Shown here: piece after piece, positions 34,708-62,411 of the stretch
How positions within the stretch are numbered: the first letter of the stretch is position 1
Layout of the letters: each line of letters starts with the position of its first letter
DNA from: Candidatus Kaiserbacteria bacterium
Lineage (GTDB): Bacteria; Patescibacteriota; Minisyncoccia; Phycocordibacterales; UBA2100
Length of the DNA: 64,000 bases
NCBI GenBank assembly: GCA_016186695.1
Contig: JACPLC010000002.1
Span: 31,335-95,334 of the forward strand
Direction of reading: 5' to 3'
The notes under the pieces: model-generated
What the model was told of the DNA's origin: nothing
Database searches by the model: none
The model's input: only the letters and a program-made list of their open reading frames with translations
Translations under genes and position numbers: made by a program

Positions 34708-34776
34708 GAAAGATCTTTCTACGCGCGCGAGTATATAACGACTTCTCGAGCCGTGATTTGAGAAAATCGAGCCCAT

Positions 34777-41206: not shown

Positions 41207-43009
41207 ATGGAGGGTATCGAGAAGTTCCACATCTACCGCCAGCTCATAGCCGTCGCGCGCCTCGCGCGGAAAGCCTATGCGCCGTACCGCGCGCAGATCC
41301 TCGCACTCACAGGCTTGGGATTCATCGGCGGCATTCTTGAAGGCATTGGCATCAACGCCATCATTCCGCTCCTTACCTCTGCGCTCGGGCTCCAATCGCC
41401 GGCGACCGACATGATCTCGCAGGTGATACAAACCGTGTTCACGTGGGCGCATGTGCCGTTCGTCCCGCGTTACCTGCTTGCATTCATCGTTATTCTTTTT
41501 ATCGGCAAGGCAACGATGTCGCTTTGGATCAGCTACATTCAAATCCGCATCACGAACGAGTATGAACGCGCAACACGCGCAAAACTATTTTCCATGGTCT
41601 TGGATGCCTCGTGGCCGTATCTCCTTCGCCAGAAGCTCGGCAACCTCGAAACGCTTCTCATGATAGATACGCCGGCCGCGACCTCGCTCCTCTCGAAGCT
41701 TAGCTTCACCATCACGCTCCTCACGGGGCTTTTGATGTATCTTGCGGTCGCATTCTCGATCTCGCCCATTGTCACGTTCTGGACGCTCGTTATCGGGGCG
41801 TTGGTGTTCGTCTCTCTCCGCTCCCTCATCGATCGGGTGCATGGCATATCGCGATCGCGCACCGAAAGCTATCGGGACACGATGCATCATGTCACCGAGC
41901 ACGTGGGGGGCCTGAAGAGCGTGAAGGCATACGGTGTTGAGCGCTCCGCGATCGCGCTGGGGAACAGCCTTTTTGAACGCATCAAGAAACTCACGATGCG
42001 CATCGCGATGTTTCAGGCTACCGCGACACAGGTCGTTGCGCCGATCGGCGTTATCTACATAGCCGTGATCCTTTCGCTCGCGTTCAAGACCGAGTTCATT
42101 TCGGTCGCTGCACTGCCGGCGATACTCTACCTTATCTATCGGATCTTCACGTATGTGCAGCAACTGCAGAACAACGTGCAATATATTTCGGAACTTTCGC
42201 CGCACCTCGAACGCGTCATTCTCTATGAGAGCGATGCCGCGGGGGGTGTGCCACCTGTTTCCGGCGATAAGCCCTTTGTGTTCAACGAGAAGCTTCTGTT
42301 CGACAAGGTCACGTTCGCATACCTGCAGGGGAAGGATGTGCTGAAAAATGTCTCATTCACGATACGAAAAGGCTCGATGGTAGGCATTGTGGGTCCATCG
42401 GGAGCGGGTAAGACGACGACGGTTGATCTCATCCTGCGGCTACTTCTGCCGACCAAAGGCGCGATCTCGCTTGACGGTGTCGATTGCCGCGATATTTCTT
42501 TATCGGAATGGCGCGAGAACGTCGCGTATGTCTCGCAAGACCTCTTTCTCCTCCACGACACGATCCGCAACAACATCCGCTTCTACGATGATTCCATCTC
42601 GGAGAGCCAGGTATGGGATGCCGCAAAGAAGGCACACATTGACGGATTCATCAAGGCCTCTCCGGAGGGTCTCGATACGCTCGTGGGCGAACGCGGCATT
42701 CGCTTGAGCGCCGGTGAGCGTCAGCGCATCGTTATCGCTCGCGCTCTTGCCAGGAAGCCCGAGCTTCTCATTCTCGATGAGGCGACAAGCGCTCTCGACA
42801 ACGAATCGGAGGCGCACATAAAGAAAGTTATCGAGGAGTTGAAAGGACACATCACCATCGTCGCGATCGCGCACCGCCTCTCGACGATCATGGGCTCCGA
42901 CTCACTCATCGTGCTCTCCGATGGTGTGCTCGTGGAGGAAGGCCCGCCGCGCAAACTGCTCGCGGATACGAGCTCGTATTTCTACAAAGTCTATACCATC
43001 AATCAATGA
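41207..43009 (+). CDS. ABC transporter, fused permease/ATP-binding protein (MsbA-like exporter)
   Basis: Six-TM N-terminal domain, then Walker A GPSGAGKTT, signature LSAGERQRIVIARAL, Walker B LLILDEATSALD, and H-loop IAHRLST. Confidence 0.85.
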   Translation: MEGIEKFHIYRQLIAVARLARKAYAPYRAQILALTGLGFIGGILEGIGINAIIPLLTSALGLQSPATDMISQVIQTVFTWAHVPFVPRYLLAFIVILFIGKATMSLWISYIQIRITNEYERATRAKLFSMVLDASWPYLLRQKLGNLETLLMIDTPAATSLLSKLSFTITLLTGLLMYLAVAFSISPIVTFWTLVIGALVFVSLRSLIDRVHGISRSRTESYRDTMHHVTEHVGGLKSVKAYGVERSAIALGNSLFERIKKLTMRIAMFQATATQVVAPIGVIYIAVILSLAFKTEFISVAALPAILYLIYRIFTYVQQLQNNVQYISELSPHLERVILYESDAAGGVPPVSGDKPFVFNEKLLFDKVTFAYLQGKDVLKNVSFTIRKGSMVGIVGPSGAGKTTTVDLILRLLLPTKGAISLDGVDCRDISLSEWRENVAYVSQDLFLLHDTIRNNIRFYDDSISESQVWDAAKKAHIDGFIKASPEGLDTLVGERGIRLSAGERQRIVIARALARKPELLILDEATSALDNESEAHIKKVIEELKGHITIVAIAHRLSTIMGSDSLIVLSDGVLVEEGPPRKLLADTSSYFYKVYTINQ

Positions 43010-44436
43010 CTATGCGGGTGATGCTCATCTGGCCGTCGGGCGATCCTGAAATCAACATACTGCTGGACCGTTTGCACAATGAGGGACATAGAATCGCCTA
43101 CTGGGTGGGCGAACATCCGGTCGCGCATCTTGTGCCGCGAGGCTGCATTTTCCACGACCACTACGATGCGTGGGATGCGAAGCGGGCGGAATCGCTCCGC
43201 GACGCGGAGATTCCGCCGGCGAGTCCCGCACTCATTGAGTCGATGATAGCGAGCGAGTCGCTCATCCTCACGATGATGAACAAGCGCTACGATAGAGCGC
43301 CTGTTGATGAACGTAAACATGTCTATTACACGATGCTCGCATACTGGGACCACGTGCTCGAAATGGTGAAGCCCGACGTCGTCATCTACAATACCGTTCC
43401 GCACAGTATTTACAGCAATATTGTCTACGAGCTTGCAAAAAAACGCGGCATTCATACGCTCACCTTTGAAGAAACGTGGGTCGGAGGGCGCCTCATGTTC
43501 TACCGCGATTTTTGGAAGGGGAGCGATGGGTTTCGCGAGGCGCTCAAGAATATTCGCAAAAATAATGTCGAACTCTCCGAATTGCATCCCGAATTGCGCG
43601 AGTACTACGAGCGTCAAACAGGTAGAGAGAGCCAACGGAGCCCGTGGTACATGCATCGACAACGATCGGTAGGGGCAGGATTCGGGCTCTGGGCACATCG
43701 TGCGCGCATTGCCTTTCGCGCGCCGCACCTGATCTTTTCGAGAGCGTTTGGCCTCCTTGTACGATCGCTCCGCGCTGATCTACGCAGCGAATACGAGGCT
43801 CTTGTGCAAAGAGCAGAGGTCTCACGTCCATTTGTCTATTTTCCCCTCAACTTCCAGCCGGAGCGTACCACGAGCCCGCAGGGAGGAATATTTCACGATC
43901 AGATTCTTGCCGTAGAGACGCTCGCGGCGGCTCTTCCCGAGGGATGGGAGATACTCGTGAAGGAACATCCTTCGCAATGGTGGCTGCGGGGTAAAACCCG
44001 CTTCTCAAGTGCTCGCTACTCCGGATACTACGCACGACTCGCGGGCATCCCGAACGTAAAGCTCGTGCCCATTCATACGGACACGTTTGCTCTGACCGAC
44101 AACGCAAAAGTAGTTGCGACGATAACCGGTACCGCAGGATGGGAGGCACTTCTGCGCGGGAAATACGCGCTCGTATTCGGCATACCGTGGTATCGGGATT
44201 GTCCCGGCGTCTTACAAGTCCGTACTGTTGAAGAATGTAAAAAAGCGCTTGCGCTCGTACAAAAAAACCAGACGGTGCCTGCTACTGATGTTCTCTCTTT
44301 TCTCAAGGTCCTCGGTCAAGAGGGTACGCGGGCGTATCTCGTTTCTGCGCCGAATGCCCAGCCGGGAATACCGCTCGAGGAAAGCATGCGGGCGATTGCA
44401 GGCCGTCTGATTCGTGAATTGAGCACTCTTTCCTAG
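43006..44436 (+). CDS. Capsule-polysaccharide-biosynthesis-type protein (KpsS/KpsC-like, Capsule_synth-like), putative glycosyl/nonulosonate transferase
   Basis: 476 aa; ..EGWEILVKEHPSQW.. (HP motif) ..KLVPIHTDTFALTDNAKVVATITGTAGWEALLRGKYALVFGIPWY.. Paralogous to 59841-61346 (VKEHPQM.., TITGAAGWEAALLGRPVLTFG). ATGA overlap with the ABC exporter. Confidence 0.4.
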   Translation: MTMRVMLIWPSGDPEINILLDRLHNEGHRIAYWVGEHPVAHLVPRGCIFHDHYDAWDAKRAESLRDAEIPPASPALIESMIASESLILTMMNKRYDRAPVDERKHVYYTMLAYWDHVLEMVKPDVVIYNTVPHSIYSNIVYELAKKRGIHTLTFEETWVGGRLMFYRDFWKGSDGFREALKNIRKNNVELSELHPELREYYERQTGRESQRSPWYMHRQRSVGAGFGLWAHRARIAFRAPHLIFSRAFGLLVRSLRADLRSEYEALVQRAEVSRPFVYFPLNFQPERTTSPQGGIFHDQILAVETLAAALPEGWEILVKEHPSQWWLRGKTRFSSARYSGYYARLAGIPNVKLVPIHTDTFALTDNAKVVATITGTAGWEALLRGKYALVFGIPWYRDCPGVLQVRTVEECKKALALVQKNQTVPATDVLSFLKVLGQEGTRAYLVSAPNAQPGIPLEESMRAIAGRLIRELSTLS

Positions 44437-44467
44437 GCACTTTTATGGCCGAGCGAGGCGTGGTACT

Positions 44468-46626: not shown

Positions 46627-46642
46627 AGCGTACTGTGAGTCT

Positions 46643-47980
46643 ATGGGAAAAAAGTTTCAAAAAGCGTTGCGCGATGGGCGTGGCCAGCGTCTCTGGAGAA
46701 AAGCAAAGACACTGATCCCAGGGGGCAATCAGCTTCTCTCAAAACGTGCAGAAATGTTCCTTCCGGAGCATTGGCCGGCGTATTATTCGAGAGCAAAAGG
46801 CGCGTACATCTGGGATCTCGATGGACGCCGATATACCGATATGTCCATCATGGGTGTCGGCGCGAATATTCTCGGGTATGGCGATCCGGACGTTGATCGC
46901 GCAGCGATAGACGCAGTGAAGCGCAGTCCGATGAGCACCCTGAATGCTCCCGAAGAAGTTGAGCTTGCGGAAGAACTCTGCAGGATACATCCGTGGGCGG
47001 ACATGGTGCGGTATGCGCGAACCGGTGGGGAATCCATGGCTGTCGCAGTACGCATTGCGCGCGCTCACACAAGACGTGACATCATCGCATTCTGCGGATA
47101 TCACGGATGGAGCGATTGGTATCTGGCCACGAATCTCGAGCGGAAGAATGCACTGGCCGGGCACCTTCTAGCAGGGCTTGAACCAAAAGGCGTACCGCAC
47201 GGACTTACCGGCACGATACTTCCGTTCCGCTATAACAGGCTCGAAGAACTGGAACGGATAGTGAAAAAGCACCCGACACTTGCGGCTATTGTCATGGAGC
47301 CGATACGCAATGTCGAGCCGGAAAAAGGGTTTCTGCAGAAGGTGCGGAAGATCGCGGACAAGGCGGGTGCCGTTCTCATTTTTGATGAAATAACCATCGG
47401 GTGGCGTCTTGTACACGGCGGTGCTCATCTCAAATACGGGGTCAACCCTGATATCGCAGTCTTCGGCAAAGCGCTCTCGAATGGCTATCCAATGGCTGCC
47501 ATCATCGGTCGCCGAAAGATCATGCAGTCGGCGCAGGATTCTTTTATCTCGAGTACCTATTGGACCGATCGTATCGGGCCCGCAACGACTCTCGCGGCGC
47601 TCCGTAAAATGAGAAAGGTCAAACTGCCGCAACAGCTTGCGCGAGTGGGGAAAGAGGTGCGACGCATCTGGCTAAGAGCTGCGAAAAAGCATGGACTCCC
47701 GATACATATAAACGGTGTTCTTCCGCTTTCGCACTTCTCATTTGAAGGAGCTGACGCGCAGGCAGCAAAAACACTTTTTACGCAGGAGATGCTGAGGCGT
47801 GGGTTTCTTGCAACCGACTCGCTGTATGCTTCGCTCGCACATACGCCGGCAATACTCACGCAATACGCGAAAGCCGTTGATACGGTCTTTGGCGTAATTG
47901 CGGCGGCAAGAAAGAAAGGTGGAGTCAAAAAGGCACTCAAGGGCCCCGTTGCCCACACCGGTTTTCAACGTCTCAATTAG
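46643..47980 (+). CDS. Class-III aminotransferase (glutamate-1-semialdehyde 2,1-aminomutase-like)
   Basis: 445 aa; ..LIFDEITIGWRLVHGGAHLKYGVNPDIAVFGKALSNGYPMAAIIGRR.. (PLP-Lys motif of HemL-like enzymes). Confidence 0.75.
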   Translation: MGKKFQKALRDGRGQRLWRKAKTLIPGGNQLLSKRAEMFLPEHWPAYYSRAKGAYIWDLDGRRYTDMSIMGVGANILGYGDPDVDRAAIDAVKRSPMSTLNAPEEVELAEELCRIHPWADMVRYARTGGESMAVAVRIARAHTRRDIIAFCGYHGWSDWYLATNLERKNALAGHLLAGLEPKGVPHGLTGTILPFRYNRLEELERIVKKHPTLAAIVMEPIRNVEPEKGFLQKVRKIADKAGAVLIFDEITIGWRLVHGGAHLKYGVNPDIAVFGKALSNGYPMAAIIGRRKIMQSAQDSFISSTYWTDRIGPATTLAALRKMRKVKLPQQLARVGKEVRRIWLRAAKKHGLPIHINGVLPLSHFSFEGADAQAAKTLFTQEMLRRGFLATDSLYASLAHTPAILTQYAKAVDTVFGVIAAARKKGGVKKALKGPVAHTGFQRLN

Positions 47981-48132
47981 GCTTGTTTTAAGGCCTTTGC
48001 TCGGAGGTGTCACACGCTGAGGGTCGCGTCCGCATGTGCTCACGCGGCGCTCCCGCTCGGCGCCTTCGCGCCTCCGCGAAGACCCTCACGACGCAATACC
48101 TCCTCGCTGCCGGAACGAGTTTCAAACGTGTG
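47981..48132. terminator. GC-rich structured intergenic region between convergent genes (nested inverted repeats); candidate bidirectional terminator or small structured RNA
   Basis: Inverted repeats read directly: tgagggtc (48018-25) / gaccctca (48081-88); cggaggtg (48002-09) / cgcctccg (48069-76, one G-U); ggcgc (48046-50) / gcgcc (48060-64). Confidence 0.3.
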
Positions 48133-48975
48133 CTAGCGTGGAATGAGCATGACGAGTCCGCCGACAATGAGGAGGAGAAGGCCGGCTTTCAGCCAGAAAT
48201 ACCGCTCGTGGAAATAGAGTTTGCCGGAGAGAAGCGCAAAGAGAACCGCGAAACTGCGCATCGCTGCCGCGATGACTGATGGGGGCGCGAATAGGTAGGC
48301 GAACGAATTGGCAATGTGCGCCAAGCCGGAGCTGAAGCTTTGTGCAAAGAACACGCTTCGTGCAAGAAAACGTAAAGGATTCTCGCGGGCGATGAATCGG
48401 GCGGCTACGAAGAAATACACGAGAAGGATCATCATGATAATGCCCTGTTCAGCCTCCACGGAATTGAAGTGCGAGATATCGTATTTGTAGAGGGAAATGG
48501 TCACCGAAGCATTTACTGCGCCGATGAGAAGGAACGAGAGGCCGCGCACCGTGTGTCTCTCATAGAAGAGCAGTGTCGAGACGGCGGCGAGTATGAGAGC
48601 CATACCGAGTACCTGCAGAGACGAGAGCGGATAGCCGAGCATGAGGTCAATGACAAGAAGCAGGGGGATCGTCAGTGATTTTACGAATCCAAAGTCAGCT
48701 CGGGAGGCTTCGATGATGCCGCGTGTCGTTACATACGCCTGCAGTATCTCGAGGATCGCGCGGGGGATAAATGTCGGAAGTGACGCGAGCGAAAAGACAA
48801 AACTGTCCCGAGCCATACCCAGGATGACGATAAAGAGCGTTCCGAAGAAAAGGCTGACGAAGCTAAGCGTGTAGACACTTGCCACTCTGTCGTGCCCTTC
48901 CTTTTTCCCGATCGACTCCGAGATCTCGGCAAAGAAGTTGCCAACGCCTGCGAGAAGAATACCGAACATAATCAA
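48133..48975 (-). CDS. DMT-superfamily (EamA-like) membrane transporter
   Basis: 280 aa with about 10 TM helices in two similar halves (..LSFVSLFFGTLFIVILG.. / ..ALILAAVSTLLFYE..; ..GIIMMILLVYFFVAARF.. / ..LLLLIVGGLVMLIP..). Confidence 0.5.
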   Translation of the reverse strand: MIMFGILLAGVGNFFAEISESIGKKEGHDRVASVYTLSFVSLFFGTLFIVILGMARDSFVFSLASLPTFIPRAILEILQAYVTTRGIIEASRADFGFVKSLTIPLLLVIDLMLGYPLSSLQVLGMALILAAVSTLLFYERHTVRGLSFLLIGAVNASVTISLYKYDISHFNSVEAEQGIIMMILLVYFFVAARFIARENPLRFLARSVFFAQSFSSGLAHIANSFAYLFAPPSVIAAAMRSFAVLFALLSGKLYFHERYFWLKAGLLLLIVGGLVMLIPR

Positions 48976-49047
48976 GCTGAAATTCTACTACCGGGCATAG
49001 GTATTACTGTAGCAGAGTTTCTTTAGCGGGCCCCCACGATATATAGT

Positions 49048-49812: not shown

Positions 49813-49815
49813 CTT

Positions 49816-50499: not shown

Positions 50500-50527
50500 G
50501 ACGTGATGTGTATATACTGCAAGCGCC

Positions 50528-51187
50528 ATGAAAAAGAAACGACTGGTCATCACCGTTCTCATCGATAACCCGAAGAGCTGGTTTGTGCCACACGGGCGGG
50601 AGCTTGTCCGACGGCTGCAAAAACGAGGGCATCGAGCGTATTTGGTGCATGCCATGAACGGTCTCAAAAAAGGCGACTGCGCTTTTTTTCTAAGCTGCGA
50701 GAAAATCGTTCCTGCCCGTGTGCGCTCGCGCAACGCGCACAATATCGTCATTCACGGGAGCGCGCTGCCCAAAGGCAAGGGTATGTCGCCACTCACATGG
50801 CAGGTCGTGGAAGGGAAGAAGAAGATCCCGCACACAGTATTCGAGGCGGCCGACACGATCGACAGCGGCGTCGTCTACCACAGAGGTACACTGAAACTCG
50901 AAGGGCACGAGCTTCTCGATGAAATGCACGACAAACAGGGCGCTCTCATCATCTCACTCGCCCTGCATTTCATAGACTCATATCCGCCAAAAAAAGGAAC
51001 GCCGCAGCGAGGGCATCAAACACTGTATCGCCGCCGCCGGCCCGAAGACAGCGAGCTTGATCCCTCGCGGCCACTATCAGAGCAGTTCAACCTACTGCGC
51101 GTAGTCGATAACGAGAAGTACCCAGCATTCTTCAGGCACAGGGGTCACACGTATGTCCTAAAGATATACAAGAGAACACAACTATGA
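50528..51187 (+). CDS. Formyltransferase catalytic domain protein (Fmt/ArnA-N/PurN-like), probable sugar N-formyltransferase
   Basis: ..NIVIHGSALPKGKGMSPLTWQVVEG.. (SLLPxxRG motif with catalytic His) ..FEAADTIDSGVVYH.. (Asp of the N/H/D triad). 219 aa, only the N-terminal catalytic domain. Confidence 0.7.
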   Translation: MKKKRLVITVLIDNPKSWFVPHGRELVRRLQKRGHRAYLVHAMNGLKKGDCAFFLSCEKIVPARVRSRNAHNIVIHGSALPKGKGMSPLTWQVVEGKKKIPHTVFEAADTIDSGVVYHRGTLKLEGHELLDEMHDKQGALIISLALHFIDSYPPKKGTPQRGHQTLYRRRRPEDSELDPSRPLSEQFNLLRVVDNEKYPAFFRHRGHTYVLKIYKRTQL

Positions 51188-52239
51188 AGAGAGAAATACG
51201 TATTGGGAAACGCGCGATCGGTTCGCGACACCCTGTTTTTGTCGTTGCCGAACTCTCTGGCAATCACAAGGGCGATATCAAACGGGCACTGAAGATTATC
51301 GACGTGGCAGCAGAGGCCGGAGCAGACGCGGTCAAGCTCCAAACCTATACGCCTGACACGATGACAATAAACTCCCGCGGCCCGCTCTTTGTTGTGAAGA
51401 CGAATCCGGCGTGGAAAGGGAAAACACTCTATGAGCTCTACAAGGAGGCCCATACGCCGTGGTCGTGGCACAAGAGACTCTTCGCGCATGCCAAAAAGCG
51501 CGGCCTTATCTGTTTTTCAACGCCATTTGATGAGACCGCAGTCGACTTTCTCGAGACACTGAAAGCACCCATCTACAAAGTTGCATCGTTTGAGATCGTC
51601 GATATTCCGCTTCTAAAACGCATCGGGCGGACGAAAAAACCGGTCATTCTCTCTCGCGGCATGGCGAGCAGGGAAGAAATCGCACGTGCCGTCCGTACGT
51701 TGAGAAAAAGCGGCACAAAGGACATCGTCCTCTTGCATTGTGTCAGTGCGTATCCCGCGAAGCCAAAGGACATGAATCTGAAAACCATTCCCGATCTGAA
51801 GAGGCGTTTTCACGTAGAGATCGGGCTCTCCGATCACACATTGGGAAACGATGTCGCGATCACGGCGGTTGCGCTCGGTGCCACCGTGGTAGAGAAGCAC
51901 GTGACACTGAAGCGATCCGAGGGCGGACCCGACGCCGCCTTCTCGCTCGAGCCGCGCGAGCTGAAAGCACTCGTGAAATCGATCCGCACCGCGGAAGCAG
52001 CGCTCGGCAAACCCACCTATGCGCGCAATCCCGATGAGAAACAAAATATCGTGTTCCGCCGGTCACTGTTCGTCGTTCAGGATGTGAAAAGGGGGGAGAG
52101 ATTCACCAAGAAAAACCTCCGTTCTATCCGGCCCGGATACGGTCTCGCGCCGAGATTCTATGATGTCGTTCTCGGCAAGCGAGCCACGCGCAATATTGCC
52201 CGTGGCACGCCGCTCTCGTGGACGTTGATACGGAAGTAG
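51184..52239 (+). CDS. Nonulosonic acid synthase (NeuB/PseI family) with C-terminal SAF domain
   Basis: ..RHPVFVVAELSGNHKGDIKRALKIIDVAAEAGADAVKLQTYT.. (cf. NeuB AEiG.NHnGdl..A..mI.aA..aGadavKfQ); ..GLSDHTLG... ATGA overlap with the formyltransferase. Confidence 0.85.
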   Translation: MKREIRIGKRAIGSRHPVFVVAELSGNHKGDIKRALKIIDVAAEAGADAVKLQTYTPDTMTINSRGPLFVVKTNPAWKGKTLYELYKEAHTPWSWHKRLFAHAKKRGLICFSTPFDETAVDFLETLKAPIYKVASFEIVDIPLLKRIGRTKKPVILSRGMASREEIARAVRTLRKSGTKDIVLLHCVSAYPAKPKDMNLKTIPDLKRRFHVEIGLSDHTLGNDVAITAVALGATVVEKHVTLKRSEGGPDAAFSLEPRELKALVKSIRTAEAALGKPTYARNPDEKQNIVFRRSLFVVQDVKRGERFTKKNLRSIRPGYGLAPRFYDVVLGKRATRNIARGTPLSWTLIRK

Positions 52240-52374
52240 GAGACAGCGCGTAACAACGGGGAGAGACGGGGGCACGCACAGTGAACTGAACGCGAGTTAA
52301 ACTGTGTCCGTCCCTAAATCCCCATAGTTGTGGAAGACTCGTCTTGATCAAGCTGCACCATATATAATGATTTC

Positions 52375-53586: not shown

Positions 53587-53626
53587 TAGTTGGACTTATT
53601 AATATTCTGGGTTGAGGTTTTTCGCG

Positions 53627-54580
53627 CTACGCGGATCGGTAGGCGCCGCGCGGGGCCTTTTTGGCTCCCTTGTATCCGGTGAGTTTGGGCATATCGACAC
53701 CTCGTGCGAGTGGAAGGATCACGAACATATCCTTGAGCTCCACCGCACTCGCAGATTCGTCTTCGGTCATTAAGGTCTCGTGCAATTTCTCGCCGGCTCT
53801 CAAGCCGATCATTTTGATGCTCATGCGCTTTCCCTTCCCGTGCTTCCTGATGAATTCTTTGGCAACATCGATAACACGCTTCGACGGTTTCATCTTCAAC
53901 ACGAATATTTCTCCGCCCTGCATATGTTCGAGCGCCCTGAAAACGAGTTCGACTGCCTCAGACAGTTCCATAAAGAAACGTGTCGCCTTCGCGTCGGTCA
54001 CCGTCACCGCTTTGTCTTCCCGGATCTGTTTTTCCCAGAGTTCGATGACAGAGCCGCGCGAGCCAAGCACGTTCCCAAACCGAACTGAAGCAAAGCGCGT
54101 GCGATGCGGCCCGACTGTCGCGTTTGCGGCTGTCATGAGGCGCTCCATCATCAACTTCGAGGCGCCCAAGACCGAGCCAGGATCGGCAGCTTTGTCGGTC
54201 GAGATGGCGAGCACTTTTTCGAGATCGTTGCGGAGTGCGACTTCGATAATATTCTGCGTGCCGACAATGTTCGTTTTTACCGCCTCGAAGGGATTGTACT
54301 CGCACACCGGCACGTGCTTGAGGGCAGCGGCGTGGAAGCAAATGTCAACGCCCTGAAAGGCAAGGTCGGTGCGCTCCTTGTCGCGAATGTCGCCGATGAG
54401 GTATCGCAGTCGTTTGTCTTCGGGCAGCTCATTTTTGAGCTCATGCTGCTTGTGCTCGTCCCTGCTGTAGATGCGAATTTGTTTTGCTTTCGTTTTCAAT
54501 AATTGCCGTACGATCTCTGAGCCGATCGAGCCGGTCCCGCCTGTCACGATAACGATCTTGCCGTCCGCCGTGTGCTTCAT
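53627..54580 (-). CDS. NDP-HexNAc 4,6-dehydratase (PseB/LegB/CapD family), second copy
   Basis: ..KIVIVTGGTGSIGSEIVRQLLKTKAKQIRIYSRDEHKQ..FHAAALKHVPVCEYNPFEAVKTNIVGTQNI..ISTDKAADPGSVLGASK.. Start MKHTADGK at 54580 (the maximal ORF reaches 54697). Confidence 0.8.
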   Translation of the reverse strand: MKHTADGKIVIVTGGTGSIGSEIVRQLLKTKAKQIRIYSRDEHKQHELKNELPEDKRLRYLIGDIRDKERTDLAFQGVDICFHAAALKHVPVCEYNPFEAVKTNIVGTQNIIEVALRNDLEKVLAISTDKAADPGSVLGASKLMMERLMTAANATVGPHRTRFASVRFGNVLGSRGSVIELWEKQIREDKAVTVTDAKATRFFMELSEAVELVFRALEHMQGGEIFVLKMKPSKRVIDVAKEFIRKHGKGKRMSIKMIGLRAGEKLHETLMTEDESASAVELKDMFVILPLARGVDMPKLTGYKGAKKAPRGAYRSA

Positions 54581-55692
54581 AGGTTGGTAAGGGCATCTTT
54601 CAGTATTTTCGCGATGTATGCAACGTCTCGCTTCGTGAGACCGAGGTAGAAGGGGAGCGCCAGAGTCTTCCCGCTCACGTCTTCGGAAATCGGACATTCG
54701 CCTGCACGGTGTCCGCGAGAGCGGTAGAACTCGAAGAGATGGATGGAAGGCAGGTAGGGTTTCGCGTGGACGCCCCGCTTCTTGAGTGTCTCTATCAGCC
54801 TGTTGCGGTCCACGCGCTTGTCTTTAAGGGCGACAACGTACACGAACCACGTGTGTGTCGCGTTCTTTGCAGGAGTGGGAAGCTCGAGGAGATCGCTGAG
54901 CGGCGCAAGCGCTTCAGCATACGTGTGTGCAAGTTCTTTCCGCTTTCGAATGAGGAAGCGGATATTCTCAAGCTGGGCAAGGCCAAGCGCGGCACTCATC
55001 TCATCAAGCCGGTAATTGTAGCCGAGGTATTTGTGATCGAGCCACTGCATATTCGGTGCGCGTCCTTGGTTGCGCAGCGAGCGACAAAGTTCTGTGACAC
55101 GGTCATCGTCGGTCACGATCATGCCTCCTTCGCCGGTCGTCATCTGCTTGTTGGCGTAGAACGCAAACACTGCGGATTGCCCGAAGGTACCGGCCTTTTT
55201 CCCTTTGTACGTGGAAAGAAGCGACTCACAAGCGTCTTCGACAACGACGAGGTTGTGCTTGTTCGCAATCGCCAAGACCTCATCCATCTTCGCGGGCTGC
55301 CCAAAAATGTGCACCGGCATTATGGCGCGTGTTTTCGGCGTGATCTTCCTCTCGATATTTTTCGGGTCGATGTTGTAGCTCTTCGGATCAATATCGGCGA
55401 ATACGGGCGTTGCGCCCACATACAGAATGGCATTTGCCGATGCGACGAAGGAAAAGGGGGAGGTAATCACTTCGTCGCCGGGCTTTATGCCCGCGGCGAT
55501 AAGCGCGATGTGAAGGCCCGCCGTGCCGCTCGATACGGCAACGGCGTGTTTTGTACCGAGTGTTTTTGCGAACTTCTTTTCGAATTTCTCGATGAACGGC
55601 CCGATGGAGAGTCTGCCGGAGCGAAGCGCCTGCAATACGTAGCGCTCCTCCTTTTTCCCAATGTATGGCCGCGCCGTGGGGTAGAACTTCAT
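54577..55692 (-). CDS. DegT-family PLP-dependent sugar aminotransferase (LegC/PseC-like), second copy
   Basis: MKFYPTARPYIGKKEERYVLQALRSGRLSIGPFIEKFEKKFAKTLGTKHAVAVSSGTAGLHIAL..FSFVASAN... ATGA overlap with the dehydratase start. Confidence 0.8.
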   Translation of the reverse strand: MKFYPTARPYIGKKEERYVLQALRSGRLSIGPFIEKFEKKFAKTLGTKHAVAVSSGTAGLHIALIAAGIKPGDEVITSPFSFVASANAILYVGATPVFADIDPKSYNIDPKNIERKITPKTRAIMPVHIFGQPAKMDEVLAIANKHNLVVVEDACESLLSTYKGKKAGTFGQSAVFAFYANKQMTTGEGGMIVTDDDRVTELCRSLRNQGRAPNMQWLDHKYLGYNYRLDEMSAALGLAQLENIRFLIRKRKELAHTYAEALAPLSDLLELPTPAKNATHTWFVYVVALKDKRVDRNRLIETLKKRGVHAKPYLPSIHLFEFYRSRGHRAGECPISEDVSGKTLALPFYLGLTKRDVAYIAKILKDALTNL

Positions 55693-55699
55693 TGTTAAA

Positions 55700-56110
55700 T
55701 CATTTCTGTTCAAGTTTTTTAACAACTTTTGCAGGAACTCCAAAAGCGACGGTGAACGCCGGAATGTCACTCTTTACATAACTATGTGCGCCGATCAACG
55801 CGCCCTCGCCAATGGTGACACTGGGCATGATGCTGCAATGCGTACCGATCTTCGCCCCCTTACCGATGACGACGCGTCCATGGGTTCCGTCTATCGTGCT
55901 CACGCTGTAAATGGCGCAGTGAGAGCCTATCTGTACCTCATCGTGGATCTCTACGCCATACTGCGGTTGAATATATGTCCCATAACCGATATCGGTGCGT
56001 ACCCCAAGCTTCAATTTATCAATGTGTTTCGGATGCACCTGCCAGCCATACATGGTCGAGCCATCGGCTCGGATTTCCGGCGCTTCCCAGTGCTCAAATC
56101 GATCGCTCAT
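55700..56110 (-). CDS. Hexapeptide-repeat (LbH) sugar N-acetyltransferase (PglD/LegH/PseH-like)
   Basis: 136 aa; tandem hexapeptide repeats ..IGSHCAIYSVSTIDGTHGRVVIGKGAKIGTHCSIMPSVTIGEGALIGAHSYV.. Confidence 0.75.
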   Translation of the reverse strand: MSDRFEHWEAPEIRADGSTMYGWQVHPKHIDKLKLGVRTDIGYGTYIQPQYGVEIHDEVQIGSHCAIYSVSTIDGTHGRVVIGKGAKIGTHCSIMPSVTIGEGALIGAHSYVKSDIPAFTVAFGVPAKVVKKLEQK

Positions 56111-56125
56111 ACGGAAGGGAGTCTA

Positions 56126-57283
56126 TCAAACTCGGAAGCGTTTATCGAGAAGGTCGCGTTTCCGAAGCTGCCGTGCAAGGGTAGTGGCTATGCGTTTTCC
56201 GGCGCCGGCTTTTCCGTAGGGCGAGCGGAAGGGTCGTCCTTTTTGTTTTTTCTTTAGTGCGATCCCGCGAGAGATTGCGGCAGTGATTTTTACGGGGTCA
56301 TAGGGTGTGTCGATAATGCCTGCTCCGCGTTCACGGCCGCGCTCTCGGTTGCCGATATTCACTGTTGGCGTGCCAAGGTAACCCGTCTCGATAATGCCGG
56401 CGGAGGAATTGCCGACGAGCACGTCGCTTCCCGCAATTGCGCTCATAAAGAGGAGTCGCGGGAGTGATTTGAAGACGTGGTACCCTTTTTTCCTCAAATC
56501 GCGGATGGTGCGTACGAAAATAGCACTCCCCGTGTCCGTATTTGGATAGATGGCGACCTTTTCGTGGTGAGGAAATGCATTGAGTGCTTGTATGGTCGAG
56601 GAGAGCTGTTTTTGCAGTGGCTCTTTGTCGAAGGAGCTCGGATGCTGAAGTACCGTTAGCCATGGTCGATTCCGATCAAGCCGGAGGACTTTCGCCACCT
56701 CGGCTCGCGGAAAACGAGTGCTGCGGAGGACCATGTCCACGACGACGCTCCCGAGGGAAAAAATTCTGCGGCGTTCTTCTCCGAGGGCGCTTATGCGTGC
56801 GGCACTCTTTTTCGTTCCGGGGAAGTGGAGGTGGGCAAGTTTTGTTATTGCGTGGCGGATGCCCTCATCAACGCCGGGGCCCGTGACGTCGCCGCCATGA
56901 ATATGCGCAAGGGGAATATTCAAGTGATTTGCAACGATCGCCGCGGCAAGCGGCTCATCTCGATCTCCAAGCACGAGGATGCAGTCAGGGCGATGTTTAA
57001 GACAGTACGCCCGGATCCCCGCGATCTCTTTTGTAAGAGCCTCAAGCATGTCACTCTCCTCTCTGACAGGCACCACGCAGTCGATCTTGTAGCCGTCACG
57101 GACAATCTCTCTTTTTGTCAGCCCGTACGATTTTAGCGTGTGCATACCCGTCACGAGGAGACGGAGCACGAGAGCCGGATGAGCGGCAATGGCATCCATG
57201 GTTGAGCGCAAAAGACCGTATTCGGCACGTGTTCCTGTCACTACCAGTATGTTTTTTCGTTTGTTCATTCGATCATGTCCCAT
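56126..57283 (-). CDS. UDP-N-acetylglucosamine 2-epimerase, hydrolysing (NeuC/LegG-like)
   Basis: ..KNILVVTGTRAEYGLLRSTMDAIAAHPALVLRLLVTGMHT..; ..LAHIHGGDVTGPGVDEGIRHAITKLAHLHF.. The probable start MNKRKNIL at 57268 abuts the NeuB stop. Confidence 0.8.
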   Translation of the reverse strand: MGHDRMNKRKNILVVTGTRAEYGLLRSTMDAIAAHPALVLRLLVTGMHTLKSYGLTKREIVRDGYKIDCVVPVREESDMLEALTKEIAGIRAYCLKHRPDCILVLGDRDEPLAAAIVANHLNIPLAHIHGGDVTGPGVDEGIRHAITKLAHLHFPGTKKSAARISALGEERRRIFSLGSVVVDMVLRSTRFPRAEVAKVLRLDRNRPWLTVLQHPSSFDKEPLQKQLSSTIQALNAFPHHEKVAIYPNTDTGSAIFVRTIRDLRKKGYHVFKSLPRLLFMSAIAGSDVLVGNSSAGIIETGYLGTPTVNIGNRERGRERGAGIIDTPYDPVKITAAISRGIALKKKQKGRPFRSPYGKAGAGKRIATTLARQLRKRDLLDKRFRV

Positions 57284-58335
57284 GAAAGGCTGCTACCCTG
57301 CAGGATACCCACCTTTGCGTGTTTGCCGAGTACATTGTTCCATTCTTTTGGCAAAAGCAAGCCTTCGGGCCGTGCGATGAAAATGTTTGCGTCACTGAGT
57401 GTTTCGCCTTTCCTGATGTCTCTTCGTGCTGCGATGCCTTTTCGTACGAGCCGCTTCGTGGCGAGTTCGTCAGCCGTTGGCTCCTTTTTGGCATTTCCCA
57501 GTATTTCTTCGGGAACGGTGAGCGAGCTGGGGATGGTTTCGCGTACGCGTCTTATAAGCTTAGTGAGTTCAGCGGGCTCGAGTGAGGCATTATGGTCGGG
57601 GCCGGGAAGCGTCTTATCCATCGTGAAGTGCTTCTCGATGAGCACGGCACCGAGCGAGACGGCATAGATGCTCGCGTCCACGCCCTCGGTATGGTCGGAA
57701 AAGCCGACGGGCACGTTGAATGTATCGCGCAACGTTTCAATAGCACGGAGGTTGGCATGCGCCGGTGGACACGGGTACTCCGACGTGCACTGCAGAAGGA
57801 CTACCTCTTTTTTTACCGGGATCGACGCGAGCGTTTCGCGTATTTCCTCGAGCGTTGCCATTCCCGTGGAGAGCAGGATGGGCTTCCCAAATCCGGCGAT
57901 ATGTTCGAGAAGGGGGATGTTGGTGAGGTCGCCCGAGGAGATTTTGTATGCAGGGAGGTCGAGCGAGTGTAAAAAATCGGCATCGGGAATGCTGAAAGGT
58001 GTTGCGAGGAATTCGATGCCTCTTTCGTCGGCATATGCTTTCAGCGTCCTGAACTCGTCGTGCGAAAGCGCGAGCTTGCGAAGCATTGCAGCCTGCGACT
58101 CGGAGATACCCGTATTCTTTGCCTGATAGGCGGCCTGCGGAGCTTCTTCGGTAATGATCTCGTCGACGGTGAACGCCTGAAACTTTACCGCATCCGCACC
58201 GGCCTCCCGTGCGGCATCGATCAACAGCTTGCCGAGCTCGACGTCGCCGTTGTGATTCACGCCCGCTTCGGCGATAACGTATGGGCTGCCCGGTTCGAGC
58301 GCGCGTTGCCCAATTCGCATACTCAAAGAGTCCAA
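57265..58335 (-). CDS. Nonulosonic acid synthase (NeuB/LegI family), second copy
   Basis: ..PYVIAEAGVNHNGDVELGKLLIDAAREAGADAVKFQAF.. and ..GFSDHTEG... C-terminal SAF-like domain. Confidence 0.85.
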   Translation of the reverse strand: MDSLSMRIGQRALEPGSPYVIAEAGVNHNGDVELGKLLIDAAREAGADAVKFQAFTVDEIITEEAPQAAYQAKNTGISESQAAMLRKLALSHDEFRTLKAYADERGIEFLATPFSIPDADFLHSLDLPAYKISSGDLTNIPLLEHIAGFGKPILLSTGMATLEEIRETLASIPVKKEVVLLQCTSEYPCPPAHANLRAIETLRDTFNVPVGFSDHTEGVDASIYAVSLGAVLIEKHFTMDKTLPGPDHNASLEPAELTKLIRRVRETIPSSLTVPEEILGNAKKEPTADELATKRLVRKGIAARRDIRKGETLSDANIFIARPEGLLLPKEWNNVLGKHAKVGILQGSSLSWDMIE

Positions 58336-59069
58336 CCGCCGTCGACGACGATGTTCTGGCCCGTTATGTGTTTCGCGGTGTCGGAGAGAAGGAACACGAC
58401 GGCTCCTGATACGTCGCTTGGCTTGAGCAGTCCGTTGCCAATGGCGAGGTGCTGTGAATATTTCTCCACGAACGCCGCTGGTTGTCCGTCGGCAACCCCG
58501 CCCGGAGATACGGCATTGAAGCGGACATTACGACTGCCGTACATTCGCGCGAAATAGCGTGCAAGTGCGATGACGGCGGCTTTTGCGGCGGCATACTCGG
58601 GGGGGACCCCGATCATTTTCGTGTTCTCGTAAAGTTCCGCGCGCGGCGCAGCAAGTCCATAGATGGAGCCGAGAAATACGATGGAGCCGGCCTTCATCCG
58701 TGGCGCGAAATATTTTGCGGTGCTCATACAGCCGCCGACGTGCATGTCGAGATTTTGGAGCATGTCCTCGACGGTCCCGTCTTCGAATTTCGCGCCAAAC
58801 GTTTTTGTTTTTGGATATGCTGCGTTCACGACGCCGTCTACGGAGCCGACCCGCTTCACGAGCTCTTCTACCGACGAGGGGGAGGTGATGTCGACATGCT
58901 CGAAACGTGCCGACAACGTGTCGGCAAGCGCGCCTCCTCTCTTTTTATCCACATCTGCAATGACGACCGAGGCGTTCTCTGCGGCGCATGCGCGGGCGAA
59001 TTCGCTTCCGAGGAGCCCGGCGCCGATGATGACGATCGTTTTTCCTTCGAGGAGAGCCATGGTGGACAC
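58323..59069 (-). CDS. Short-chain dehydrogenase/reductase (SDR)
   Basis: GKTIVIIGAGLLGSEF (Rossmann TGxxxGxG-like), ..YAAAKAAVIALARY.. (YxxxK). Confidence 0.75.
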   Translation of the reverse strand: MSTMALLEGKTIVIIGAGLLGSEFARACAAENASVVIADVDKKRGGALADTLSARFEHVDITSPSSVEELVKRVGSVDGVVNAAYPKTKTFGAKFEDGTVEDMLQNLDMHVGGCMSTAKYFAPRMKAGSIVFLGSIYGLAAPRAELYENTKMIGVPPEYAAAKAAVIALARYFARMYGSRNVRFNAVSPGGVADGQPAAFVEKYSQHLAIGNGLLKPSDVSGAVVFLLSDTAKHITGQNIVVDGGWTL

Positions 59070-59080
59070 GATAGTATACT

Positions 59081-59809
59081 TTAGGAGAAACCGCGAATTC
59101 GCTTCTCCACCTCTTTGCGATTCCCGAAAATAACCTCTCCAACGACAAAATCCTCCGGCTCGTCGAGATCGATCGCGCGCCAGCGCGGGATCTCGTAGCC
59201 CACGAGTTTTCCGGGGAAGAATGTTTTTTCAGCGATAAGCTTTTTGGCGTCGACAAGGTAGAGCATAGAGCCGTCGAACCGGAAGTATGCGGGAAGCTGC
59301 TGCCTGTTGGGCGAGGTGAGCATCTCGGGATTCTCGAAGTGAATAACATTGCCTTTGTCTTTCGTCATCAGCACGTTCTCACTCCGGCATACGGAGACGA
59401 GTGAGTCCGCCCGCGAATCGTTAAACAATCTCACTGCACTCTCGATATCCTCCGACGTCCGCAATGGGCTCGTTGGCTGCAGCAAGAGGATGTGTGTCGG
59501 TTCATATCCATCTTTTCGTAATTGTTCAAGGAGATGAATAACAGCATCGACAACTGTGCTCGCATCCGTAGCAAGTTCCGCGGGACGCAGGAATGGAACT
59601 TCGGCTCCATATTTTTGGGCTATCCCCGCTATTTCTTGGGAATCAGTAGAAACTACGATCCGATCAAGCGAAGGGGCAGCTTTCGCAACTTCGATCGTGT
59701 ACGCGATGAGTGGTTTACCGGCGAACATCCGGATGTTTTTGTTCGGAATACCGCGGGAACCGGCACGTGCAGGAATTATTGCAAGTATGTTCGCGTCTTT
59801 TCGGGCCAT
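59081..59809 (-). CDS. CMP-nonulosonic acid synthetase (NeuA/LegF acylneuraminate cytidylyltransferase family)
   Basis: ..ILAIIPARAGSRGIPNKNIRMFAGKPLIAYTIE.. (cf. NeuA aiIpARgGSKgi.gKNi). Start MARKDAN at 59809 (the maximal ORF reaches 59881). Confidence 0.8.
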   Translation of the reverse strand: MARKDANILAIIPARAGSRGIPNKNIRMFAGKPLIAYTIEVAKAAPSLDRIVVSTDSQEIAGIAQKYGAEVPFLRPAELATDASTVVDAVIHLLEQLRKDGYEPTHILLLQPTSPLRTSEDIESAVRLFNDSRADSLVSVCRSENVLMTKDKGNVIHFENPEMLTSPNRQQLPAYFRFDGSMLYLVDAKKLIAEKTFFPGKLVGYEIPRWRAIDLDEPEDFVVGEVIFGNRKEVEKRIRGFS

Positions 59810-59840
59810 TGTGTTCCATTGTATAGTGGCATCTATCACT

Positions 59841-61346
59841 ATGAAAGGCTGCCTCGTTCTCCAACGGCGCTTCGCATACATCGGACATGAACTGGGGAAG
59901 CTCTTGAAAGAAAGACATGGGATCGACGAGTTTTGTGCATTTGTATCGCTGCGGGAGAGTTACGAATTCCTGAAAAATCAGAAAGACATTCGCTATACGG
60001 ATATTTTGCTCGACGAGGATGTACAGAAGCGATACGTAGATGAACCGCTCGATATGGAGTACATCCGGAAGTTCGAGAGCACCTACGGCAATGTCCGCGA
60101 CATGATAAAAGTGGATCGTGTCATTGCGCTCGGGCAATTAGTGCGAGAGTACCCGCATGCACGCTCCCCATACACTGAAGGTGAGCGTCTACGGATCGCT
60201 CAGGTATATGCGAAAAGTGTCGAGGCGTTTCTCGCGAAAGAAAGGCCCGATTTTATTCTCACCTACCAGCCCGGTGCACTCTGGATGCTGATGATGTACA
60301 AAATAGCGAAGCAGAAAGGCATCCCTGTGCTTACGATCGTCCTGCCAACCACGAAGAATCGTGTCGCGCTCTCCGAAGAGTACGGATCTCTCTCGTGGGT
60401 GGATGAGTGCTTCAAGCGGGATCTTGCCAAACCGCTTTCCGATGTGGAAGGGTACGAGGAAGCTCGGAAATTTATCGAGGAATTCCGCACGCGCCCTGTT
60501 GTATATTCTGATGTGTACACGAAACTCATCCAGCACGGCACATTGAAGCAATTCCGGTTCCTCGTGCCTCTCAATATGCTTTCTACACTGCGCTCTATCT
60601 TCTTTCTACTCTACAATTGGCTCCGGTCTTCTGCGCTTCGTACAGACTACAACGCACTCAAGCCTCATTGGTACCTATATGACCGTGTACGAAGAAAGTT
60701 GCGCAATCTTGTCGGCGTGAACGATCTCTATGACCCCTATGACTCAAAAAAATCGTTTGCGTTTTACGCGCTCCATTTCGAACCAGAGTTGTCTGTGCTT
60801 TTGCTCTCAGAGGAAACCGATCAGCGGGTCATAATTGCCAAGCTCGCGGCTGCTCTTCCCGAAGAGATGCTTCTCTACGTGAAGGAACATCCGCAGATGA
60901 CCCCCTATCGCACGCGTGCCTATTATAAGCAGCTAAAAAAAATACCGAATGTGCGGCTCGTTCGGCCCGAGCTTTCAAGCTTCGATATCATGCGCTCTGC
61001 TCGTCTCGTCTCAACAATCACCGGCGCTGCGGGCTGGGAAGCCGCACTTTTGGGTCGACCGGTGCTCACCTTCGGCAATGTTTTCTACAATGCGCTTCCC
61101 TCAGTGGGGCACGTTACGGATATGAGCGAGTTACCCCGTGTGGTGCGGCAAACGCTCGAAAGACCCGTTCCCCGTGAAGAAGCGGAGCGGTATCTTGCAG
61201 CGCTTCTTAGAGAGAGTGCCGAGTGTGACATCCTTTCGGTCTGGGAATCGGAAATCGGAAGCCCGGATGCATCTGAAAAGCTCGCCGGCTTTGCAACTCT
61301 TCTTGCCCGCAAGATCAAACTCGTGACGACTCGTGATAGAAGGTAA
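59841..61346 (+). CDS. Capsule-polysaccharide-biosynthesis-type protein (KpsS/KpsC-like), paralog of 43006-44436
   Basis: ..EEMLLYVKEHPQMTPYRTRAYYKQLKKIPNVRLVRPELSSFDIMRSARLVSTITGAAGWEAALLGRPVLTFGNVFY.. Start MKGCLVLQRR (ATG 59841). The N-terminal 285-nt extension of the ORF overlaps the divergent cytidylyltransferase and was discarded. Confidence 0.4.
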   Translation: MKGCLVLQRRFAYIGHELGKLLKERHGIDEFCAFVSLRESYEFLKNQKDIRYTDILLDEDVQKRYVDEPLDMEYIRKFESTYGNVRDMIKVDRVIALGQLVREYPHARSPYTEGERLRIAQVYAKSVEAFLAKERPDFILTYQPGALWMLMMYKIAKQKGIPVLTIVLPTTKNRVALSEEYGSLSWVDECFKRDLAKPLSDVEGYEEARKFIEEFRTRPVVYSDVYTKLIQHGTLKQFRFLVPLNMLSTLRSIFFLLYNWLRSSALRTDYNALKPHWYLYDRVRRKLRNLVGVNDLYDPYDSKKSFAFYALHFEPELSVLLLSEETDQRVIIAKLAAALPEEMLLYVKEHPQMTPYRTRAYYKQLKKIPNVRLVRPELSSFDIMRSARLVSTITGAAGWEAALLGRPVLTFGNVFYNALPSVGHVTDMSELPRVVRQTLERPVPREEAERYLAALLRESAECDILSVWESEIGSPDASEKLAGFATLLARKIKLVTTRDRR

Positions 61347-62388: not shown

Positions 62389-62411
62389 GTCGCGCGATTC
62401 TAGCTCGACCT

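Follow-up and report, generated by a model that had tools for sequence, protein, structure and literature searches.

Two KpsC/WbbB-fold paralogues beside nonulosonate cassettes in a Candidatus Kaiserbacteria genome are candidate CMP-nonulosonate transferases with a variant catalytic motif

The closest described relatives of the proteins considered here are retaining beta-Kdo transferases (Kdo, 3-deoxy-D-manno-oct-2-ulosonic acid): KpsS and both modules of KpsC belong to glycosyltransferase (GT) family GT107, and the N-terminal module of WbbB belongs to GT99. KpsS1 of Acinetobacter baumannii, which reportedly founded family GT118 in 2024, acts in a Wzx/Wzy capsule locus. It is described as a retaining alpha-Pse5Ac7Ac transferase (Pse, pseudaminic acid) related to KpsS, KpsC, and WbbB, and the same account gives the retaining Kdo transferases a QxxxD motif, in which the Gln binds the carboxylate and the Asp is the nucleophile (PMC12887879). 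In Tannerella forsythia, Tanf_01245 and TFUB4_00887 are reported as Pse-specific and legionaminic acid (Leg)-specific transferases, respectively, that carry HP (His-Pro) motifs and are not interchangeable; their genes adjoin the loci for CMP-Pse and CMP-Leg (CMP, cytidine monophosphate), knock-outs lose the sugar, and the report calls knowledge of nonulosonic-acid transferases scarce (PMC5420450). Here we looked into two paralogous proteins, A and B, encoded in a stretch of 64,000 nucleotides, the window, from the Candidatus Kaiserbacteria assembly GCA_016186695.1 (contig JACPLC010000002.1, positions 31,335 to 95,334; G000:C1:31335-95334 in our numbering). The source is a member of the candidate phyla radiation (CPR)/Patescibacteria with a genome of about 0.9 Mb (902,033 bp in 10 contigs, 93.73% complete). 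We consider it probable, from sequence and gene context, that A and B act as CMP-nonulosonate transferases, and we would class them as divergent, so far unnamed members of the wider KpsC/WbbB/KpsS1 kinship that carry a variant catalytic motif. A full-text literature search, which did not cover subscription journals, found no work linking CPR bacteria with nonulosonic, legionaminic, or pseudaminic acids.

The gene for A lies at 43006..44436 and that for B at 59841..61346, both on the plus strand, and they encode 476 and 501 amino acids, respectively. Both proteins exceeded the gathering score (20 bits) of the Pfam family Capsule_synth (PF05159; 37.2 bits for A and 31.1 bits for B), with the match limited to profile positions ~170 to 280 of 310, the C-terminal Rossmann part; no further gene of the genome matched PF05159. 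No other Pfam family matched either protein at an E value of ≤1e-2, and no NCBIfam family matched A at ≤1e-5. As the initial annotation had proposed, A and B share a VKEHP core (H321 in A, H350 in B) and a TITG(T/A)AGWEA(L/A)L motif (TITGTAGWEA in A, TITGAAGWEA in B). They are homologous, with 27% identity over 388 columns in BLASTP (E value = 2e-23) and a match of their family alignments in hhalign over 359 columns (E value = 8e-46), which covered residues 103 to 474 of A; the N-terminal ~100 residues of the two did not align to each other. A could also start at either of two in-frame ATG codons, 43012 or 43021, the latter being where the database form P0003 (471 amino acids) starts. For B, a longer open reading frame (ORF) from 59556 (596 amino acids) was rejected; it would run into the divergent cytidylyltransferase gene, whose start is at 59809, and is taken to be spurious.

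The AlphaFold2 models of A (pLDDT 90.1, pTM 0.89) and B (pLDDT 89.6, pTM 0.87) both had a GT-B-like fold of the KpsC/WbbB type. An exhaustive VIA-align search with both models over 48,161 chains gave the same top three for A and B, namely KpsC-C (6mgd; Z = 14.5 at 5.4 Å over 259 aligned residues for A, Z = 17.1 at 3.5 Å over 256 for B), WbbB (5fa0; Z = 13.8 and 15.2), and KpsC-N (6mgb; Z = 13.3 and 15.4). An archaeal 2-epimerase (4nes) scored 12.8 and 13.7, and KrkA (GT140; 9yfx) scored 10.9 and 12.6. Searches of the PDB sequences with A-family profiles reached KpsC at E values of 8e-8 and 1.2e-8 and with the B-family profile at 7e-10, the KEHP of the families aligning onto the KVHP of KpsC; WbbB was marginal in these searches (0.017 and 0.24). 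The resemblance to Capsule_synth and KpsC-type enzymes, also claimed at the outset, thus held up in both sequence and structure. We rejected a TagF-like identity, which had been named beforehand as an outcome that would overturn this claim, since neither Pfam nor the top structural neighbors, which were retaining Kdo transferases, gave a TagF-like signal. Relative to KpsC and WbbB, A and B are only 12 to 15% identical, are ~150 residues longer, with a helical insert, and come from a CPR bacterium rather than from a Gram-negative one with a KpsMT exporter.

Of two conserved motifs, one sets A and B apart from their characterized relatives. KEHP was invariant in the A and B alignments, and K[EV]HP occurred in 117 of the 120 listed homologues of A and in 104 of the 120 listed homologues of B. 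A second motif, P-x-x-x-[QE]-P-E, was present in 115/120 and 103/120 of these homologues, respectively; its form is PLNFQPE in A and ALHFEPE in B. In the single hidden Markov model (HMM) alignment that reached this motif, PGQVESD of KpsC-C (6mgd) paired with PLHxEPE of the B family, and the PLNFQPE of A was equated with PGQVESD of KpsC through the profile alignment of A and B. By these two steps, the position of the Asp nucleophile appears to be held by an invariant Glu (E286 in A, E316 in B), while the position of the Gln is mostly His (H/Q) in B and variable (N/H/S/G) in A. The HP motif and the G-x-E-A helix after it aligned directly with KpsC. A carboxylate at the nucleophile position would thus be common to A, B, KpsC, and WbbB, but QxxxD becomes [N/H/S/G]-x-[Q/E]-P-E, with Glu for Asp. 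Of the initial assignment to a GT107/GT99 type, the fold and the HP motif therefore stand; QxxxD is not kept and no Kdo synthase was found, and going by sequence, A and B are not canonical GT107 or GT99 enzymes. The Glu that replaces the Asp nucleophile may mark a distinct catalytic variant, even an inverting one.

Both paralogues abut nonulosonate gene cassettes, in agreement with the initial annotation: ~31 nucleotides lie between A and the downstream PseB gene, and 31 bp separates B from a divergent CMP-sugar synthetase gene. The Leg-type cassette beside B (53627..59809, minus strand) encodes a PglF/PseB-like dehydratase, a LegC-like aminotransferase, a hexapeptide N-acetyltransferase, NeuC, NeuB, a PtmA-like short-chain dehydrogenase/reductase, and the CMP-sugar synthetase, a cytidylyltransferase (59081-59809, minus strand). 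By the NCBIfam cut-offs that we used for equivalog calls, NeuC (TIGR03568, 352.6 bits against 235.9) and NeuB (TIGR03569, 404.4 against 399.65) qualified. The LegC-like aminotransferase (317.2 against 420), the dehydratase (338.2 against 407.75 on the PseB model), the cytidylyltransferase (158.9 against 205.7 on the PseF model), and the PtmA-like protein were all below their cut-offs. The listed ORFs of the dehydratase (53627-54697) and the LegC-like aminotransferase (54577-55770), both on the minus strand, overlap by ~120 nucleotides, and a start further into the frame is probable for the dehydratase.

The cassette beside A (44468-52239, plus strand) is of the Pse type. PseB (44468-45514; TIGR03589, 447.8 bits against 407.75), PseC (45511-46626; TIGR03588, 468.5 against 423.5), and the pseudaminic acid synthase PseI (51184..52239; TIGR03586, 494.6 against 340.25), all on the plus strand, exceeded their cut-offs. 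The same strand carries a class III (glutamate-1-semialdehyde-aminomutase-like) aminotransferase (46643..47980; PF00202), which is a conserved accessory found in 28 of 78 related loci, a CTP_transf_3 cytidylyltransferase (49048-49812; below every NCBIfam cut-off), a GT2-like protein (49816-50499), and a formyltransferase-like protein (50528-51187), the last three labeled by Pfam. An EamA-like membrane protein (48133..48975; PF00892, 23 bits, below cut-off) is encoded on the minus strand inside the cassette and has a homologue in 5/78 related loci. PseG was not found anywhere in the genome, so the cassette is noncanonical, a point against our preferred reading. Together with the added aminotransferase, GT2-like, and formyltransferase-like genes, and with a cytidylyltransferase that scores best on KdsB-type models (for its counterpart beside B, the top model is that of PseF), this suggests a noncanonical or modified Pse pathway. 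Given the subcutoff enzymes, the lack of PseG, and the extra genes, the exact sugars made by the cassettes are probably modified variants.

These two cassettes are the only CMP-sugar pathways near A and B. No Kdo-8-phosphate synthase (TIGR01362) was found in the 93.7%-complete genome, and CMP-Kdo is thus unlikely to be available; CMP-beta-Kdo is the donor that a GT107 or GT99 enzyme would use. This bears on the reading in which A and B are not nonulosonate transferases at all and merely lie within a sugar island as Kdo transferases, TagF-like glycerophosphotransferases, or epimerase-like enzymes. UDP-GlcNAc 2-epimerases were indeed the next structural neighbors (Z = 12.8 and 13.7) and came first in Foldseek, and the canonical nucleophile motif is absent. 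Nevertheless, besides the missing Kdo-8-phosphate synthase, Pfam returned Capsule_synth alone at an E value of ≤1e-2, the CMP-binding HP motif is invariant, a separate NeuC already provides the epimerase step, and the linkage to nonulosonate genes is strong. We regard a function outside nonulosonate transfer as very improbable.

We then evaluated how A and B co-occur with nonulosonate synthases in 301 genomes drawn evenly from the class, with matches sorted by hand. Genes were called A type at a best E value of ≤1e-150 to one A-family profile (plus G030, which has a two-piece match in one frame) and B type at ≤1e-180 to the B-family profile. Because the sampled genomes are related to each other, the counts are descriptive and are not statistical tests. 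A-type genes occurred in 18/301 genomes and B-type genes in 16/301 (both in 11, A only in 7, B only in 5). PseI was above cut-off in 16 genomes and NeuB in 18, and a NeuB-family match at ≤1e-20 was found in 85/301; with so few of these 85 above the cut-offs, many NeuB-family synthases of the class may make other or novel nonulosonates.

B followed the non-Pse synthases closely. NeuB was above cut-off in 12 of the 16 genomes with B, and where a synthase lay on the contig of B (n = 14; the other two genomes had none there), the nearest one was NeuB above cut-off in 10 cases, a synthase below both cut-offs in 4, and PseI above cut-off in none. PseI was also not above cut-off in any of the five B-only genomes. 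Four contigs carry both genes together with two synthases, and in each of them B had a NeuB-type or non-Pse synthase as its nearest; one of the four is that of G094, in which the second synthase is below both cut-offs. Around B, NeuB-, NeuC-, or PseF-like neighbors were present in most of the nine fetched loci in which A is absent or on another contig. An association of B with NeuB/Leg-type synthesis, and not with Pse, is thus well supported, and we lean, by a small degree, toward a Leg-type sugar as the one that B uses.

The correlation of A with PseI was looser. PseI was above cut-off in 10 of the 18 A-type genomes; in G244, the PseI frame close to A is split. PseI lies on the side of A in the source genome (G000) and in G079; it lies beyond A, away from B, in G027, although a non-Pse synthase is nearer to A there. 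In G233 and G244, one contig holds A with PseI (the split frame in the case of G244), and another holds B, accompanied by a NeuB-type gene. Some genomes do not fit a Pse-specific A: the synthase nearest A was NeuB type in G119, G018, G271, and G212; G018 and G271 have both A and B with that single synthase; and G008 has A with no synthase match at all. A is therefore not strictly tied to PseI, its link being looser than that of B to a non-Pse synthase, and we place the use of a Pse-type sugar by A at even chances. The initial expectation of one transferase for each nonulosonate accordingly holds for B and only loosely for A.

The same genomes speak for an alternative without one-to-one matching, in which A and B use the same donor or are promiscuous and differ in acceptor or linkage, like the two GT107 modules of KpsC. 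Besides G018 and G271 with their one synthase and the four genomes in which a NeuB-type synthase is nearest A, this alternative would accommodate the unrelated N-terminal parts of A and B and the tandem copies of A found in 6/77 loci (L024, L027, L029, L036, L040, and L050). It does not readily account for the consistent arrangement on contigs with two synthases, for the placement of PseI in G000, G079, and G027, for the two genomes in which the pairs are split onto separate contigs, or for the 25 of 74 loci in which a PseB-like gene immediately follows A. On balance, we consider a shared or promiscuous donor rather unlikely, and we retain the reading in which B takes a Leg-type and A a Pse-type donor.

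Further observations weigh against reading A and B as CMP-nonulosonate transferases. In VIA-align, generic GT-B enzymes and 2-epimerases trailed the Kdo transferases by 1.7 to 3.4 Z units only, a modest margin that still agrees with the sequence evidence. In Foldseek against the PDB, the first ranks went to 2-epimerases and generic GT-B enzymes (TM scores of 0.21 to 0.32), with KpsC at rank 35 for A; these low-scoring generic matches indicate that Foldseek did not discriminate. The canonical P-x-Q-x-x-x-D was present in just 1 of the 120 listed homologues of A and in none of the 120 of B, and the proposed equivalence of the Asp and the Glu was derived from a single HMM alignment with 6mgd and the profile alignment of A with B, not from a superposition. 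All named homologues are annotated as hypothetical proteins. Legionaminic acid carries an equatorial C5 substituent. According to PMC12887879, ulosonic acids with a substituent in that position may not be taken readily by retaining GTs of the Kdo-like kind. As a counterexample, SpsB of Bacillus subtilis, a TagB-domain protein with an HP motif encoded beside a Leg pathway, is described as dispensable for Leg transfer (PMC7439481).

Compared with the described nonulosonate transferases, A resembles KpsS1, by the published description, in superfamily (PMC12887879), in having a CMP-nonulosonate as its putative donor, and in a locus with Pse synthesis genes; it differs in being paired with an ATP-binding cassette (ABC) exporter instead of lying in a Wzx/Wzy capsule locus. 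The Tannerella enzymes offer a further parallel in being a Pse- and Leg-specific pair with HP motifs, encoded beside CMP-sugar loci and capping a lipid-assembled protein O-glycan (PMC5420450). However, those two enzymes occur in different strains and have an identical C terminus, whereas A and B are in one genome and are 27% identical. On the NCBIfam model for the family of the Tannerella enzymes (BFO_1060 family, NF046086), B scored 28.3 bits and A 20.6 bits, far below its 200-bit cut-off, and weak matches to it, none of them close to that cut-off, were seen in 28/30 B-family members (best E value = 5e-11) and 10/30 A-family members (best E value = 2.7e-7).

The families themselves are large. 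The B-family profile matched 11,502 clusters (50% identity) at an E value of ≤1e-3, 8,049 at ≤1e-10, and 1,994 at ≤1e-30. Ten distant full-length relatives of B, including one from a Legionellales metagenome-assembled genome (MAG) and one Tara record, were all labeled hypothetical. The ESM Atlas held similar Capsule_synth clusters of ~480 amino acids (best structural match, TM score of 0.93), whose few taxon-labeled members were mostly Pseudomonadota or Bacteroidota. A third, more divergent paralogue type, absent from the window, matched both A and B profiles (E values of 1e-26 to 1e-66) in five other genomes (G146:C4:16758-17609, G289:C25:43719-44546, G047:C1:85633-86220, G282:C3:160983-161612, and G180:C3:24154-25608). 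PseI above cut-off lay within ~1 to 4 kb of it in four of the five and at ~14 kb in G180.

A is further linked to an exporter. The gene directly upstream (41207..43009, plus strand) encodes a fused ABC exporter of 600 amino acids, an ABCB or type IV half-transporter in which the transmembrane domain (ABC_membrane, residues 69 to 292) precedes the nucleotide-binding domain (ABC_tran, residues 379 to 528), as assigned by Pfam at the family level, and the ATG of A overlaps its stop codon as ATGA. The coupling noted in the initial annotation is thus real, and we asked how widely it is conserved. Among 292 relatives of A in species-representative genomes, we kept 78 loci, labeling neighbors by their best tblastn match to the proteins of the window at ≥50% coverage; one (L045) was left out for its short A piece, which gave 77 loci, of which 68 had at least 1,900 bp upstream of A. 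The ABC gene was directly upstream of A on the same strand in 47 of these 68 loci (median gap, 17 bp), at A identities down to 31%, and anywhere in the locus in 60/68. At least one nonulosonate gene was present in 69/77 A loci. Directly downstream of A (≤400 bp; 74 loci), the gene was PseB-like in 25 and a cytidylyltransferase in 13, and there was another or no labeled gene in 29. B was present in 12/78 A loci, often divergent and just upstream of the ABC gene, with the gene order B-ABC-A seen once (L006). In contrast, none of the nine B loci fetched where A was absent or on another contig had the ABC gene, which is evidence that the exporter goes with A and not with B.

Nearly all of the A loci were from Patescibacteria MAGs. 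Two (L044 and L046), automatically labeled uncultured Gammaproteobacteria, carry A homologues of ~36 to 37% identity in the same nonulosonate context, with the ABC gene directly upstream of A in L044 and none labeled in L046; they may reflect a binning or label artifact, or transfer.

The exporter is of a generic ABCB type. Its best NCBIfam models were those of HepA (332.6 bits), MsbA (297 bits), and PglK (205.8 bits), with which it shares domain order and family. All were below their equivalog cut-offs (725, 602, and 1000, respectively), which counts against any specific assignment, and a PDB sequence search returned only generic ABCB/ABCC exporters and was uninformative on substrate. The likeness to PglK (the Campylobacter N-glycan flippase), MsbA, and HepA extends to the proposed role, in which a glycan on a lipid carrier would be flipped; Wzx (PF01943) was searched for in the genome and not found. 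We give slightly less than even chances to the exporter flipping the product of A. We know of no described case of an ABCB exporter translationally coupled to a KpsC-like transferase.

The initial annotation had gone further and suggested for A and B an ABC-transporter-dependent, capsule-like pathway. We rejected a route of the KpsMT type: the exporter is a fused ABC_membrane and ABC_tran protein of the ABCB type and not the separate KpsM/KpsT ABC-2 exporter of group 2/3 capsules, only A is linked to it, and, with no Kdo-8-phosphate synthase found in the genome, the poly-Kdo linker that would anchor such a capsule is unlikely (KpsE and KpsD were not searched). A related alternative is that A is a lipid-priming enzyme like KpsS, which is described as priming phosphatidylglycerol in group 2/3 capsules (PMC12887879). 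A would then add the first ulosonic acid to a phospholipid or glycolipid, which the MsbA-like exporter would flip, the product being a lipoglycan or capsule-like anchor and not a capped oligosaccharide for protein glycosylation. The tight, conserved pairing of A with the exporter, the lack of an exporter beside B, and the second rank of the model of MsbA, the lipid A flippase, agree with this. However, HepA is an equally close match for the exporter, which is also a relative of PglK; none of 30 A-family members matched the KpsS model NF050054, leaving no KpsS-specific similarity; and the many GT4 genes, three PMT_2 genes, and one Wzy_C gene of the surrounding island fit an oligosaccharide carrier route. 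Lipid priming by A thus seems unlikely, and we prefer the assembly of a capped, lipid-linked oligosaccharide.

In the mechanism that we propose, A and B would be GT-B glycosyltransferases, either soluble or peripheral, in the structural group of KpsC, WbbB, and KpsS1, and their donors would be CMP-activated nine-carbon ulosonic acids from the flanking cassettes and not CMP-Kdo. The island's many GT4, GT2, and GT9 enzymes would build a glycan on a polyprenyl carrier, and this lipid-linked surface glycan would serve as the acceptor to which B and A add nonulosonates, B most likely transferring the NeuB/NeuC-derived legionaminic-type sugar and A the PseI-derived pseudaminic-type sugar. During catalysis, the HP motif would bind the CMP phosphate, and the invariant Glu (E286 or E316) would stand at the site of the nucleophilic Asp of KpsC and WbbB. 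The coupled ABCB-type exporter would move the product of A across the single membrane in the manner of PglK or MsbA, and a GT-C or Wzy_C-type enzyme would pass the glycan to surface proteins or wall polymers. A bolder reading, in which B-type proteins are KpsC-fold Leg-type transferases with the Glu variant and A with its ABCB exporter forms a conserved "cap-and-flip" module of single-membrane CPR bacteria, is a doubtful proposition when all of its parts are taken together. In that module, capping with the nonulosonate would clear the lipid-linked glycan for export, as the Kdo cap added by WbbB does for the O antigen.

Searches of the genome also turned up a single Bac_transf initiating transferase, a single gene of the MraY/WecA family, two Wzy_C genes, of which one lies where this contig ends, and three PMT_2 GT-C genes, each of them within the window. 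They found no gene for an LCP ligase, Maf, or flagellin, and a Maf/flagellin route was rejected because neither turned up. Convergent with B is a gene for GDP-mannose 4,6-dehydratase (61357..62451, minus strand; PF16363, 399 bits), and a similar gene lies within ~1 kb of B homologues in L083, L088, and L090, as it does in the window; a 6-deoxyhexose may be part of the acceptor of B.

A and B are embedded in a sugar island that extends from the first position of the window as far as the contig reaches, at least 74 kb of the 0.9-Mb genome. Across window positions 1-64000 and the adjoining G000:C1:94000-105604 (L081), its content includes many GT4 genes, the three PMT_2 GT-C genes, FkbM methyltransferases, an ADP-heptose pathway with a GT9 gene, a GtrA-GT2 fusion, and an RGP-like protein, and the Wzy_C gene at its far end is interrupted by the end of the contig. 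Mid-island, the minus strand encodes a 2,383-amino-acid RHS-repeat/SpvB-domain protein (27625-34776) and a small RHS-repeat ORF (26875-27351). A peptidoglycan-binding-domain protein (52375-53586) lies between the plus-strand and minus-strand cassettes. In the class sample, neither A nor B occurred in any of the 12 genomes of the same order, which indicates a patchy distribution of the island.

Only a small number of nonulosonic-acid transferases have been described, and the families of A and B are large and unnamed; given also their changed catalytic motif, their characterization would probably define new GT families. If B uses a Leg-type sugar, it handles a donor class that is expected to be hard for Kdo-like retaining enzymes on account of the equatorial C5 substituent, as in sialic acid, and characterizing A and B would test whether the KpsC fold can handle such sugars. 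For the organism, the locus implies that a CPR genome of 0.9 Mb devotes 74 kb or more to a surface glycan carrying two sugars of the sialic-acid-like kind, and if the bolder reading is true, these host-attached, ultra-small cells would display a doubly sialic-acid-like surface. With NeuB-family genes in 85 of the 301 class genomes, this suggests a part of CPR surface chemistry that is still unstudied, and it may matter for host attachment and for evading phages or host defenses.

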